The translations under genes and the position numbers were made by a program. A stretch of 7,067 nt of DNA from IMG/VR virus record IMGVR_UViG_2703718789_000002; one strand, written 5' to 3'. This DNA is from a virus (Duplodnaviria > Heunggongvirae > Uroviricota > Caudoviricetes). The notes beneath the pieces were generated by a model. It was not told the origin of the DNA. It did not search any database and saw nothing but the letters and a program-made list of their open reading frames with translations. Of the stretch, positions 1,252-7,067 are shown piece after piece. Every line of letters starts with the position of its first letter. Positions within the stretch are counted from its first letter, which is position 1.

Positions 1252-1430
1252 CTTGTTTTCCTCGCACAATGTCTTAGCCACCGGATATCCCACAGGTGAG
1301 CCGTGTAGTTGAAGGTTTTTACGTCAGATTCTTTTGGGATTGGCTTGCGTTTATTTCTGGAGCGTTTCGTTGGAAGGTATTTGCAGTTTTCGCAGATGAT
1401 GTCGGTGAAACTTCGTCGCTGTCGCCTCAT
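1248..1430 (-). CDS. ninE: NinE
   Basis: Internal ATG at 1430 (cat 1428-1430) gives 60 aa [60 protein letters not shown], matching lambda NinE length and sequence as recalled. The start overlaps the upstream gene's stop (ATGA). Confidence 0.85.
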
Positions 1431-1954
1431 GCCGCCCTCCTGACGCCCTGCCCGATCGCCATCAATGCCGCTTTGGATACGGTAGTAAACATCCGTCGAG
1501 GACTGATGAACGGTCGCCAAATCAGCAGCATGGAGCCTTTGCTGTTTCCCTTCTTCTCCAACCCTGTCGATGGTTCGATAAAATTAATCCGTCCATCAGT
1601 GATAATGCGAACTTCGTCGACACTCTCCAGAGCCTTGCTGAACCATCCGACTGACATATCCTCTGGCACAAGCATAACTACCGTCTGTCGCTGTTGTATG
1701 CACTGCTCAGCGGCTTTTTCCACCCACGGCCTGATATTGCTGTACGGTGGGTTATTCCAGATTGCACCGTGGCTTACCCACTCAAAATTGAGCGCGTCGT
1801 CGGCCTCAGTTAGCCAGTGAGCACACAGAGCATTTTTGTCGCTCGCTGCCGAATCCAGCCAGAATCCAAACTCAATATCCAGTGCATCAAAAAGCCAAAG
1901 CGGCGTTTGCCAGCAGTCCTTGTCGTGTGCTGGCGTATTTGATTTGATAGTCAT
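1427..1954 (-). CDS. Phage DNA N6-adenine methyltransferase (Dam family)
   Basis: 175 aa from ATG at 1954 (cat 1952-1954): [31 protein letters not shown]...[18 protein letters not shown]... The NPPY motif (motif IV of N6-adenine MTases) and the CWQTP N-terminus are typical of the phage Dam MTase family. It sits where lambda has ninC/ninD. The longer ORF-track start at 2014 is rejected because it would overlap ninB by 60 nt. Confidence 0.8.
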
Positions 1955-2391
1955 GCAGCCCGATCTCCCCATCTCGCTTTCCACTCCAGAGCCAGTCTCG
2001 CTTCGTCTGACCACTTAACGCCACGCTCTGTACCGAATGCCTGTATAAGCTCTAATAGCTCCGCAAATTCGCCTACACGCATCCTGCTGGTTGACTGGCC
2101 TATTACCACAAAGCCATTCCCGGCAAGGTTAGGAACAACATCCTGCTGCTTTAATGCTGCGGTAAACACACACTTCCAGCTTTCTGCATCCAGCCAGCGA
2201 CCATGCCATTCAACCTGACGAGAGACGTCACCTAAGCAGGCCCATAGCTTCCTGTTTTGGTCTAAGCTGCGGTTGCGTTCCTGAATGGTTACTACGATTG
2301 GTTTGGTTGGGTCTGGAAGGATTTGCTGTACTGCGTGAATAGCGTTTTGCTGATGTGCTGGAGATCGAATTTCAAAGGTTAGTTTTTTCAT
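1951..2391 (-). CDS. ninB: NinB (Orf-family recombination mediator)
   Basis: 146 aa from ATG at 2391 (cat 2389-2391): MKKLTFEIRSPAHQQNAIHAVQQILPDPTKPIVVTIQERNRSLDQNRKLWACLGDV..., which I recognise as lambda NinB. Stop overlaps the MTase start (ATGA). Confidence 0.9.
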   Translation of the reverse strand: MKKLTFEIRSPAHQQNAIHAVQQILPDPTKPIVVTIQERNRSLDQNRKLWACLGDVSRQVEWHGRWLDAESWKCVFTAALKQQDVVPNLAGNGFVVIGQSTSRMRVGEFAELLELIQAFGTERGVKWSDEARLALEWKARWGDRAA

Positions 2392-2755: not shown

Positions 2756-3453
2756 ACACTTGCTCCTTTCAGTCCGAACTTAGCTTTGATTTCTGCGATC
2801 TTCGCCAGAGCCTGTGCACGATTTAGAGGTCTACCGCCCATGACAGGAAGTTGTTTTACTGGTTCAGGGATCGCCTCACCACGGTTAATTCTCGCAGTCA
2901 TATGGACAAGCTCATCTGCGGCCTTACGGCGTAATTCCGCATCAGTAAGCGCATTGGCCCGCATGTTCTGATACAGGTTGGTAACCAGCCAGTAGTGCGC
3001 GTTTGATTTCCACGGATAAGACTCCGCATCCGGATACAGGCCTCGCTTCCGGCAATACTCGTAAACCATATCAACCAGCTCGCTGACGTTTGGCAGTCCG
3101 GCGATAACGGATGCTTCTTCCCGGCACCATGCAACAAACTGCCCGGGTGATGGCAGAAATGGTCGATTCTGCCGACGGGCTACGCGCATTCCTGCGTTAA
3201 CCTGTTCCATTGTGGTGATCCCGTTTTCCCGGAAAGCCAGAACCCACTGGCGGCGGATTTCGTTCAGTTCGTTCTGGTCACGGTTAGCCAGACTCGCCGG
3301 GAAAGTTGCCAGTAACTGGCTGAACACACCGTTGATGATCTGCGCTACCTGCTGTACCTGCGGCTTTTCGTCGTACTGTTCCGGCATGTTGTTGGCGATC
3401 CTACACATCTGCTCACGGTCAAAGTTAACCATCTGTGCGGCGATGTTTTTCAT
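2752..3453 (-). CDS. P: Replication protein P (DnaB helicase loader)
   Basis: 233 aa MKNIAAQMVNFDREQMCRIANNMPEQYDEKPQVQQ..., recognised as lambda P. ATGA overlap with the O stop at 3450-3453. Confidence 0.93.
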   Translation of the reverse strand: MKNIAAQMVNFDREQMCRIANNMPEQYDEKPQVQQVAQIINGVFSQLLATFPASLANRDQNELNEIRRQWVLAFRENGITTMEQVNAGMRVARRQNRPFLPSPGQFVAWCREEASVIAGLPNVSELVDMVYEYCRKRGLYPDAESYPWKSNAHYWLVTNLYQNMRANALTDAELRRKAADELVHMTARINRGEAIPEPVKQLPVMGGRPLNRAQALAKIAEIKAKFGLKGASV

Positions 3454-4695: not shown

Positions 4696-4754
4696 AACAA
4701 TTGATTGAATGTATGCAAATAAATGCATACACCATAGGTGTGGTTTAATTGGAT

Positions 4755-4786
4755 GCCCTTTTTCAGGGCTGTGATGTGTAAGAGCG
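4755..4786 (-). promoter_or_regulatory. nutR-like N-utilisation site (boxA + boxB hairpin), in the cro-cII spacer that also holds the tR1 region
   Basis: On the minus strand boxA CGCTCTTAC (complement of 4778-4786) is followed by boxB hairpin GCCCTGAAAAAGGGC (complement of 4755-4769). Order and spacing relative to cro and cII are as in lambda. A palindrome gtatgcaaataaatgcatac (4711-4730) lies between boxB and cII. Confidence 0.8.
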
Positions 4787-4793
4787 GTGTTAT

Positions 4794-5808
<1,015 letters not shown>

Positions 5809-5858
5809 TGATAAGTCGCCGAGATGCTCGTAGAGCATACAGCGATGCAGGAGAATTT

Positions 5859-6293
5859 ATGGCACTTAATTTAGAAAGAATATCTTTTATAACCCCATTT
5901 GATAGCAGCGAAGAACCCAACCAACCGACGCTTAATTTTACATGCAATGAATTTCCTGCGCGGCTATCAATTGATTTCAGGGTTGGTATGATCGGGTTGA
6001 AACCAAATTCAAGATATAATTTGGGTATTATGGTAATCCCCGCGCACCTAATTATAAAAAAAGGTGAGGAAATTCAATTCCCTGACGGCTCTTCGGAATC
6101 AGTTTCACTTTTCATCGATACGAAAGATAGCCATTTTGAAACAGGGGTTGGCGGACAGGTAATAGTAACATTGAAAGAAATTAGGATCCCAGCTAAAGGG
6201 CTGTATAGTGTTATAGGGAGATTGCAAGATAATGAAGACCCTAAAAATGAACTTCATAAAAATGAATCATTTTTCACCGTAGAGCTATTATGA
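5859..6293 (+). CDS. Hypothetical protein (soluble, ~144 aa), first gene of the cassette that occupies the rexA position
   Basis: ORF in frame with ORF-track 5805..6293. Preferred start is ATG 5859-5861, preceded by AGGAG (5849-5853) at 5-nt spacing. GTG 5805 and ATG 5808 are alternatives without a good SD. Translation MALNLERISFITPFDSSEEPNQPTLNFTCNEF...ESFFTVELL has no hydrophobic segment and no motif I recognise. It is not similar to lambda RexA. Confidence 0.7.
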   Translation: MALNLERISFITPFDSSEEPNQPTLNFTCNEFPARLSIDFRVGMIGLKPNSRYNLGIMVIPAHLIIKKGEEIQFPDGSSESVSLFIDTKDSHFETGVGGQVIVTLKEIRIPAKGLYSVIGRLQDNEDPKNELHKNESFFTVELL

Positions 6294-6892
6294 GTGACGA
6301 CAGCAATTTAAATAATCATGGAAAGCAAGACACCAACATATCTGAAAGCCGGAGGTTGAAGGTTGTTGGCGGTTCCGATTTTGAGGCTGAATTTGATAAT
6401 TCTCCCACCAAGGTGCAAAATAATTACATAAAACCGCCACAAACGGAGGAAGAAGTGGGAACGATCAGCAGAGAGGAACTTGATGCTCGCTTAGCTGCTA
6501 ATAAAGCAGAGATGGAGTCTATTGCTTCTTCCATTAGGGCTGACATGGCTCTATCTCGTGAAAGCGTTAATGTCCAATTTGCATCACTTAATGCGGCCAT
6601 AAGCTCTCTATCGTCCAAGATCGATGGAAAAATGGATAGCGCTGCTGGCGATTTAAAAGCAATTAATGGGAGATTCGAAGGAATTCAAGGACAAATAACA
6701 GGGGTTAATACCGCAATTAGTGGTGTTCAGTCGGGTATTTCTATACGATTAGCCATTTTTAGTGTCATTATCGCTGTAATAGTTGCGATTCCCGGGCTGG
6801 TATCAGCTTTAAAGTCAGACCACGCACCTTTGCAAGCGCCGCCACAAAATACCCAGCCAACAGACAACAAAAAAATCACTCCCCAGCATTAA
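6290..6892 (+). CDS. Hypothetical membrane-anchored coiled-coil protein (200 aa, single C-terminal TM helix), second gene of the cassette in the rexB position
   Basis: ATG 6290 overlaps the upstream stop (ATGA at 6290-6293). Polar N-terminus, then Ala/Ser/Ile-rich heptad-like helical region (aa ~60-150: REELDARLAANKAEMESIASSIRADMALSRESVNVQFASLNAAISSLSSKIDGK...), then hydrophobic helix LAIFSVIIAVIVAIPGLVSAL (aa 154-174, nt ~6749-6811), then a short Pro/Gln-rich tail. Not similar to lambda RexB, which is polytopic. Confidence 0.8.
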   Translation: MSDDSNLNNHGKQDTNISESRRLKVVGGSDFEAEFDNSPTKVQNNYIKPPQTEEEVGTISREELDARLAANKAEMESIASSIRADMALSRESVNVQFASLNAAISSLSSKIDGKMDSAAGDLKAINGRFEGIQGQITGVNTAISGVQSGISIRLAIFSVIIAVIVAIPGLVSALKSDHAPLQAPPQNTQPTDNKKITPQH

Positions 6893-6918
6893 CCCGGCCT
6901 CAGCGCCGGTTTTTCTTT
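6893..6918 (+). terminator. Putative Rho-independent terminator downstream of the cassette
   Basis: CCGGC (6894-6898), 6-nt loop, GCCGG (6905-6909), then TTTTTCTTT (6910-6918), immediately after the ORF B stop (taa 6890-6892). The stem is short (5 bp, all GC), so confidence is moderate. Confidence 0.55.
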
Positions 6919-7067
6919 GCCTCACGATCGCCCCACCTAAAAACACATAACCAATTGTATTTATTGGAAAATAAATAGATACAACTCACTAAACAACGCA
7001 ATTCTGATCTCTCCTTACATCGCCGAGGCAATACACTCACTCGTAAGCGTACAGCCTGAACCGTCTG

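Follow-up and report, generated by a model that had tools for sequence, protein, structure and literature searches.

A two-gene cassette between cI and Timm in a lambdoid Escherichia coli prophage: architecture, exchange of partners and a candidate role in exclusion

The interval between the cI and N genes of lambdoid phages is referred to as a hotspot of mosaic diversity and a variable defense locus (PMC8585504; bioRxiv 10.1101/2024.02.24.581848, with reference in each case to Degnan et al., 2007), and the cargo published for this slot includes rexAB in lambda and HigBAC in an Escherichia coli prophage (NT1F31), with bstA lying downstream of cI in BTP1 (PMC8585504; bioRxiv 10.1101/2024.02.24.581848). 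Lysogen-expressed pairs of a cytoplasmic and a membrane protein encoded near the repressor have also been described as Sbash gp30/31, CarolAnn gp44/43, Butters gp30/31 and RexABpp of Pseudomonas putida; most of these Rex-like pairs are without similarity to lambda Rex, yet act through membrane damage or sequestration of the partner (PMC7542560; PMC12894663). The DNA analyzed here is a stretch of 7,067 nucleotides (nt) from IMG/VR record IMGVR_UViG_2703718789_000002 (hereafter the window). It represents the early region of a lambdoid E. coli prophage, and the slot behind its cI gene carries a cassette of two open reading frames (ORFs), named ORF-A and ORF-B.

That this cassette is a dispensable, horizontally exchanged two-gene module built for expression with the repressor is firmly supported. 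The most likely single explanation of its role, to which we give a probability of roughly 45%, would be Rex-like exclusion or abortive infection of superinfecting phages, because a membrane protein is combined with a swappable cytoplasmic protein in a slot known for exclusion systems. A first-pass annotation of the window had presented the cassette as unrecognized. It is already annotated in phages HK244 and HK542, in an interval that is itself a published hotspot: the immunity regions of both phages hold the same cassette (EF120457, EF120458 and NC_019769, the HK542 gp35 pair, records which are those of Degnan et al., 2007, Mol Microbiol 64:232), with EF120457 labeling the products, between cI and Timm, hypothetical proteins HK24405/HK24404. 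The existence of the cassette is thus on record, and what is new here is the evidence from its context, namely repressor-independent synteny and the modularity of the partner.

Limits of the cassette and signals of its operon

The first-pass annotation had placed two plus-strand ORFs at 5859-6293 and 6290-6892, and both were confirmed there. The features of the locus are as follows.

5095..5808, plus strand: cI repressor gene (ORF; lambda immunity), which heads the operon bearing the cassette
5809..5858, plus strand: cassette leader, 50 nt, with a hairpin at 5824-5838 and the Shine-Dalgarno sequence GGAG at 5850-5853
5859..6293, plus strand: ORF-A (ORF list), 144 amino acids (aa), soluble, acidic (pI 5.0), phrog_5893
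6290..6892, plus strand: ORF-B (ORF list), 200 aa, phrog_5820
6455..6739, plus strand: coiled coil of ORF-B, residues ~56-150, ~13 heptads (heptad register)
6749..6811, plus strand: single transmembrane helix of ORF-B and its C-terminal anchor, residues ~154-174, LAIFSVIIAVIVAIPGLVSAL (hydropathy)
6812..6889, plus strand: Pro/Gln-rich C-terminal tail of ORF-B, 26 aa, predicted periplasmic (alignment)
6890..7046, plus strand: lambda-type right flank, from the cassette to oL/PL (BLASTN against lambda and mEp332)
6894..6919, plus strand: intrinsic terminator Timm (terminator scan), hairpin at 6894-6909 followed by a T-run; annotated in HK244

The cassette extends over 5810-6889, with limits that are exact to the nucleotide, the repressor gene lying on one side and the operon terminator on the other. 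Using BLASTN, similarity to lambda and to mEp332, ev099 and PhiR5_2, which are lambda-immunity phages with other cargo in the slot, was found to stop at 5804-5809 and to restart at 6887-6893. The left breakpoint with lambda (5809) is one base past the cI stop codon, and the right breakpoint (6890) is the stop codon of ORF-B, the same point in lambda being the stop codon of rexB. It had been proposed that the swap is bounded on both sides, and the exact junctions bear this out; the restart of similarity, which had been put at about 6920, was placed too late, as lambda similarity runs from 6890, some 30 bases earlier, and takes in the terminator. Similarity on the right ends again at 7013 (lambda) or 7046 (mEp332), and this lambda-type right flank was found in 592 complete E. 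coli genomes.

Timm itself, which reads CCGGCC-TCAGCG-CCGG followed by TTTTTCTTTG, is common to lambda and forms the right-hand junction of the cassette. On the plus strand, the stretch from cI to the end of ORF-B has no predicted terminator-like site, and the sole promoter-like site, at 6393-6421, lies within ORF-B and not ahead of ORF-A. With a terminator present and a promoter-like site of its own not found upstream, the cassette, like rexAB, appears to depend on PRM/PRE, and the prediction of no promoter-like site ahead of ORF-A and of no terminator before Timm, which follows ORF-B directly, fits read-through from these promoters, from which we infer its expression; PRM and OR1-3 are marked in the annotation of the HK244 cI region. 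A search of Rfam gave no RNA family within 4700-7067. The leader contains a small, perfect hairpin (ATGCTC-GTA-GAGCAT) ending 12 bases 5' of the ORF-A Shine-Dalgarno sequence, and the same leader, hairpin included, precedes ORF-A in loci L031 and L040, where other repressors stand upstream. This hairpin may be an element of RNA processing or translation control.

The G+C content of the cassette is 0.37-0.44, against about 0.5 in its flanks (replication genes). Between the window and a homologous pair in Citrobacter, approximately 83% of synonymous sites differ, while only 22% (ORF-A) and 39% (ORF-B) of non-synonymous sites do so; protein identity is 68% and about 60%, respectively, with synonymous sites saturated, and the comparison of ORF-B with its Cedecea homolog gave a dN/dS (ratio of non-synonymous to synonymous substitution rates) of 0.13. 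Judged from these sequence comparisons, ORF-A and ORF-B are real genes under purifying selection. Lower G+C together with purifying selection is as expected of a moron, that is, an accessory module, and the cassette has the further marks of a moron and of cI-N hotspot cargo, being a discrete and dispensable insert of atypical composition between conserved flanks, in place of which relatives carry alternative cargo.

Predicted architecture of the two proteins

Hydropathy and heptad register agree with the layout suggested by the first-pass annotation, in which a soluble protein precedes a coiled-coil membrane protein anchored at its C terminus. Comparison with Pfam, NCBIfam and PADLOC gave neither protein a significant match to any family, known defense families included.

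ORF-A starts at an ATG that lies five bases past the GGAG. Some gene callers report a form of 162 aa, which corresponds to the in-frame GTG at 5805; the homologs all begin at the ATG position and not at this GTG. The protein has no hydrophobic or transmembrane segment and no signal peptide, and no match was obtained in Pfam, NCBIfam, PADLOC or the PDB sequences, the one assignment being PHROG 5893 (function not annotated). An earlier model, built from nine close homologs, was poor (predicted local distance difference test, pLDDT, 56) and was replaced by an AlphaFold2 model using an alignment of 15 sequences, which predicts an eight-stranded immunoglobulin (Ig)-like beta-sandwich with a pLDDT of 88 and a predicted template modeling score (pTM) of 0.81. 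The predicted structure is a sandwich of two sheets that can be superposed on E-set domains, and we are confident, as far as a model allows, that the fold is a generic Ig-like beta-sandwich. An exhaustive profile search returned only 44 matches, roughly one half of them to small proteins (131-153 aa) that form a wider A family and the remainder to long LPXTG adhesins, matched through their Bact_surface_Ig-like repeats, a motif shared at the level of the fold. The conserved residues F10, P33, G99, G114, Y116 and F138 occupy core positions, and no catalytic signature was seen among the conserved residues, so that ORF-A looks like a binding module.

The ATG of ORF-B overlaps the stop codon of ORF-A (ATGA), which implies translational coupling. 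Its N-terminal region of about 55 residues is variable among homologs and leads into the coiled coil, which has an Ile/Val-rich core near the membrane and in which homologs vary by indels of whole heptads (e.g., IDGKIEG, 7 residues). The hydrophobic segment at 154-172 is the only one in the protein (mean Kyte-Doolittle value of 2.7 over 19 residues), and the transmembrane helix is kept in 23 of 23 aligned homologs. Since no signal peptide is present and 150 hydrophilic residues precede the sole transmembrane helix, an N-in, tail-anchored topology is predicted as by far the most likely. The tail exists in two E. coli alleles, of 200 aa (the window; WP_001278659) and 206 aa (HK244/HK542; WP_024233432), an indel of 18 bases in the Pro/Gln-rich part leaving the window protein 6 aa shorter; tails in other genera are 10-20 aa longer than that of the window.

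ORF-B gave no significant match in Pfam, NCBIfam or PADLOC, and PHROGs returned only a family without an assigned function. Its matches to Baculo_PEP_C, SlaB, MakE, SmhB, haemagglutinin and apolipoprotein are coiled-coil noise far under the cutoffs and were not used. Assignment to the alpha-pore-forming toxins of the ClyA family was rejected likewise, as SmhB (E 0.015, 18 bits) and MakE (E 0.033, 13 bits, the cutoff being 360) stand amid coiled-coil matches to haemagglutinin, apolipoprotein and sigma-1.

Synteny, exchange of partners and occupancy of the slot

Homologs of ORF-B were found in 29 clusters in Escherichia, Klebsiella, Enterobacter, Citrobacter, Cedecea, Salmonella, Yersinia and Pectobacterium, with further homologs in Xenorhabdus and Arsenophonus. 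Their gene neighborhoods were compared in assembled contigs and in 46 IMG/VR loci, 44 of them analyzable; a scan of genome contigs yielded two loci only. A synteny check proposed earlier was to ask whether the pair recurs as a unit, and it does so behind several unrelated repressors. The recurrent order on one strand is prophage repressor, small ORF, ORF-B homolog and terminator, with a cro/ydaS-like gene opposite. Repressor, partner and ORF-B homolog follow one another directly in 27 of the 44 IMG/VR loci, one extra gene intervenes in nine (DUF3024 between an S24 repressor and ORF-A in eight, another small membrane ORF in one) and eight were left unresolved.

The repressors ahead of the pair include lambda cI, an S24 hybrid of 215 aa with a different helix-turn-helix (HTH) domain (L040) and an S24 repressor of 235 aa followed by DUF3024 (L031), and the E. 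coli cassette, at 96% nt identity or above, stands behind at least three different repressors. RacR-like HTH repressors (125-172 aa) with divergent ydaS/ydaT precede the pair in Citrobacter (L008) and Pectobacterium (L013), and other HTH+S24 repressors (229-253 aa) do so in Cedecea (L016), Yersinia (L012) and loci of Klebsiella type (L046-54). The exceptions are Yersinia L011 and Xenorhabdus L022, in which the pair lies close to tail genes.

The DUF3024 protein, of 113 aa, is encoded about 360 bases 5' of ORF-A in numerous E. coli prophages (L030-L039, L043 and L045), and its stacking ahead of ORF-A indicates that the slot can take more than one cargo unit. Between the DUF3024 gene and ORF-A, L031 also holds (2999-3020) a relic of about 20 bases of the lambda cI 3' end (GTGAAGAGACGTTTGGATGA) which matches window 5788-5808. 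Evidently the 3' end of cI was carried over with the cassette when the latter entered a prophage having a different S24 repressor. A near-identical terminator (CCCGGCC-N6-GCCGGG-T5) comes right after the ORF-B homolog in most of 16 contexts inspected, from several genera, and a terminator of this kind was seen just past the ORF-B homolog or repressor-operon cargo in L008, L012, L016, L019, L025, L046 and L067. From their sequences, the repressor 3' end and the Timm-like terminator look like general recombination joints.

The partners of ORF-B homologs fall into three or more families that are unrelated to one another. The first is the beta-sandwich family phrog_5893, found in the window, in the Klebsiella, Enterobacter and Citrobacter types and in Cedecea (38% identity). 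The second comprises proteins of 112-120 aa with two CxxC pairs (4-Cys; phrog_4293), and the third, which may be more than one family, proteins of 92-101 aa including phrog_4231. The Xenorhabdus partner is a probable member of the A family from profile comparison (hhalign E 0.0017). The Salmonella partner of 149 aa shares motifs with that family but reached an hhalign probability of only 0.3% and was excluded from the count; having been included in alignments A3 and A4, it makes the later P0046 matches circular. A distant member of the A family, P0065 in L019, follows an S24 repressor and overlaps the gene of a 134-aa tail-anchored coiled-coil protein, which has no detectable homology to ORF-B and was set down as analogous only. 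An N-terminal hydrophobic motif (LKVV/LRVV/LQAV) near residue 23 is found in those ORF-B proteins whose partners are of the A family or the 4-Cys family, and also in the L019 protein; it is possibly a docking strand.

Among 50,697 phage records, the pair was found in HK244 and HK542 only, and a search of 5,426 complete E. coli genomes found the cassette in 51, or about 1%; the match covers at least 80% of the cassette in 49 of these, and 49 complete genomes have both reading frames intact. It had been taken for granted that rexAB is the default occupant of the slot, a view that the same genomes do not bear out, as rexAB occurs in 99 (all at 99% identity or above) and full-length lambda-type cI in 618. 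Thus rexAB is a minority occupant, and the cassette fills about one in 12 of the lambda-type slots. Other occupants are a 345-aa "T2SS GspM containing protein" in mEp332 (L003), a 285-aa NYN-domain protein in ev099 (L006) and a 253-aa hypothetical protein in PhiR5_2 (L007), and for these single-gene cargoes no characterization was found. No paper matched the accessions of the cassette proteins or the PHROG identifiers in a literature search that did not extend to Degnan et al. (2007) and Brenes and Laub (2025).

Compared with HK244, the cassette of the window has three (ORF-A) and five (ORF-B) nt differences and one 18-base indel, and is about 99% identical, while the adjacent cI differs at 22 positions, mostly synonymous (about 3% diverged). 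Cassette and repressor differ in history, and the finding of a near-identical cassette next to a diverged cI suggests that its spread among cI alleles is recent.

The minus strand of the window carries ninG, ninF, ninE, a DNA adenine methyltransferase gene, ninB, ren, P, O, cII and cro, with cro, cII, O, P and cI being lambda-like. The cI product has HTH_3 and Peptidase_S24 domains (Pfam, 4.6e-29 and 2.6e-11), and its gene has 96.4% nt identity to lambda cI. A prophage of E. coli strain 2013C-3264 is 99.9% identical to the window, and the chromosome of the cattle isolate E. coli 13E0725 is 100% identical over cI and the final 168 bases (6900-7067). The N6-adenine methyltransferase gene (1427-2014, minus strand) is intact in the window and in 13E0725, and the copy of 2013C-3264 is split by an IS3-family element. 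At the other end, window positions 7047-7067 (TAAGCGTACAGCCTGAACCGTCTG, plus the preceding G) diverge from all lambda-type relatives, which run on towards oL3. They are the left end of ISEc8 (IS66 family), inserted between Timm and oL/PL as in 13E0725, where tnpA, tnpB and the ISEc8 transposase gene come next beyond the 6900-7067 match. The prophage of E. coli MDR_56 (L018) retains cII, cro, cI, ORF-A and ORF-B as well as the early-left genes through bet, its replication and nin region having been replaced by an IS1203 element that adjoins the lysis genes.

Readings of function and comparison with known systems

Under Rex-like exclusion, the cassette would be a moron that shares the repressor's transcript in the lysogen, with transcription stopping at Timm. 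ORF-B would be its constant part, an N-in inner-membrane protein with a C-terminal anchor, made oligomeric by its coiled coil of about 95 residues, and ORF-A would be an interchangeable cytoplasmic partner, an Ig-like binding module. The partner would sense or gate, and the membrane protein would depolarize or permeabilize the membrane, so that the infection is aborted. Gene structure, operon signals, predicted fold and topology, placement behind repressors and partner swapping are the observed or predicted elements of this scheme; the A-B interaction, the membrane damage and the anti-phage effect are what we infer.

Several points weigh against this reading. Position and architecture are what suggests an anti-phage function. 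To our knowledge, a single-pass, tail-anchored coiled coil corresponds to no known type of pore, channel or effector, and the similarity of ORF-B to alpha-pore-forming toxins is only at noise level. Both proteins gave zero families at E values up to 1 in PADLOC-DB v2.0.0 (2023), a library that later systems fall outside of, and neither of the two RefSeq accessions is present in the DefensePredictor supplements. In three complete genomes (NZ_CP063473, NZ_CP031134 and NZ_CP195467) the match to the cassette is split in two by IS1 and the module is inactivated. Members of the family were encountered almost exclusively in repressor operons of lambdoid prophages and not in defense islands, and this near-exclusive linkage fits a lysogeny-specific role, a block at entry or a toxin-antitoxin-like pair about as well. 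Lastly, lambda RexAB also modulates the lysogeny-to-lysis transition (PMC12315714, citing Thomason et al., 2021), a dual role from which it follows that position alone does not imply exclusion.

The dual role of Rex is also the precedent for the first alternative, an unlikely one, in which the pair is not for defense and instead tunes how lysogeny is maintained or induced, a role put forward for RexA/RexB (PMC12315714, citing Thomason et al., 2021), or alters the host envelope as a factor of lysogenic conversion. The near-exclusive linkage to the repressor operon would be accounted for in this way, as would the keeping of the cassette, with cI, cro and cII, in the decayed remnant of MDR_56. 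Against it, the pair stands behind repressors that have unrelated DNA-binding domains, with or without S24, a finding hard to square with a dedicated repressor partner; partner swapping and cassette exchange resemble conflict systems more than core regulation, and most lambda-immunity prophages are without the pair, which is thus dispensable.

Genes for superinfection exclusion (Sie) are typically expressed in the lysogen and lie near the repressor. A block at entry, with the tail or helix of ORF-B hindering DNA injection without cell death (cf. P22 SieA, HK97 gp15 and T4 Imm) and ORF-A aiding assembly or stability, would suit a membrane-anchored and nearly prophage-restricted ORF-B having an extracytoplasmic Pro/Gln-rich tail of varying length. 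We regard it as rather improbable, as approximately 150 of the 200 residues of ORF-B, the conserved coiled coil and the partner are all predicted to be cytoplasmic, whereas the periplasmic part amounts here to only about 26 residues in the least conserved region of the protein; nor was any similarity to known Sie proteins found in Pfam, PHROGs or PADLOC.

Even less weight is given to a toxin-antitoxin-like pair, in which ORF-B would be a membrane toxin restrained by the coupled upstream partner and would serve prophage addiction, with abortive infection possibly triggered as a secondary effect if the partner were labile. A small upstream gene followed by a larger downstream gene, with stop and start codons overlapping in many loci, and one downstream family combined with several unrelated upstream families would be in keeping with such a pair. 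However, the overlapping gene order is the only resemblance, as neither protein contains a toxin, antitoxin, HTH, ribbon-helix-helix (RHH) or AbrB domain or a DNA-binding antitoxin fold, a promoter of its own was not detected, and the modeled ORF-A is a stable-looking beta-sandwich without a disordered region. That the ORFs are hitchhiking or decaying sequence without current function, as the bare annotation "hypothetical protein" and the IS1-disrupted copies might suggest, is very improbable given the intact frames in complete genomes, the strong purifying selection across genera, the confident fold predicted for ORF-A and an architecture and synteny conserved across Enterobacterales.

Rex-like exclusion stays the preferred reading. 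A wider proposal, which is tentative and rather doubtful, is that phrog_5820 represents a new defense family embedded in the repressor operons of Enterobacterales prophages, in which a tail-anchored coiled-coil effector would work with interchangeable sensors (beta-sandwich, 4-Cys zinc-ribbon-like and ~95-aa proteins) and would have spread by way of the two junctions; if so, different partners would confer different phage specificities. Should the pair exclude phages, it would be a new defense family having an unusual single-pass, tail-anchored coiled-coil effector and plug-in sensors, and the repressor-to-terminator interval of lambdoid prophages would gain support as a systematic hunting place for such systems. 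The regulatory context is among the best understood in biology and HK542 is a cultivable carrier available from culture collections, which makes the idea easy to test. If the pair is not for defense, it is still a widespread membrane module linked to lysogeny, present in about 1% of complete E. coli genomes, human and cattle isolates among them.

Like lambda RexA/RexB, a system whose hallmark is the exclusion of T4 rII and other phages through membrane depolarization, the pair consists of two genes on the cI strand that fill the interval from the cI stop codon to Timm, the first encoding a soluble and the second a membrane protein, and it presumably belongs to the same PRM/PRE transcript. The proteins themselves are different. 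The first-pass annotation had held that the slot contains an unrelated cassette, and indeed no RexA or RexB similarity was found by BLASTP (best E value 0.059 over 16 residues, in a two-sequence database) or Pfam. The Ig-like beta-sandwich predicted for ORF-A contrasts with RexA, described as a DNA-binding protein of RdgC-like structure (PMC12315714, citing Adams et al., 2024). RexB and other Rex-like membrane components pass the membrane four times (PMC7542560); ORF-B has a single transmembrane helix, near its C terminus, and in addition a long coiled coil. The promoter scan also gave no PLIT-like promoter ahead of ORF-B, unlike in lambda rex. The pair therefore lies outside the RexA and RexB families and shares with them the location between cI and Timm, the common transcript being deduced from signals.

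The other Rex-like pairs differ in having a weak DUF4747 or RexA-like signal in the cytoplasmic part and, in Sbash, CarolAnn and Butters, a four-pass membrane part, neither of which is present here. The fold of ORF-A can be likened to Ig-like/E-set binding domains such as those of RhoGDI, the carbohydrate-binding domain of Wzt, the Ig-like domain of GH2, adhesin repeats and Pycsar AGS-C. BstA (BTP1) and HigBAC (E. coli NT1F31) likewise lie downstream of a repressor with presumed sharing of its promoter (PMC8585504; bioRxiv 10.1101/2024.02.24.581848); they and the other slot cargo are unrelated in protein and mechanism, and none is a pair of a beta-sandwich and a tail-anchored coiled coil. The pair of HK244/HK542 occupies the identical slot, with protein identities of 98.6% (ORF-A) and 95.6% (ORF-B), and differs in its ORF-B of 206 aa and in its carriers, which are HK97-like, whereas the prophage of the window has lambda-type O/P; the records assign it no function. 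The cassette is best filed with the known class of repressor-linked prophage cargo, as an uncharacterized member.

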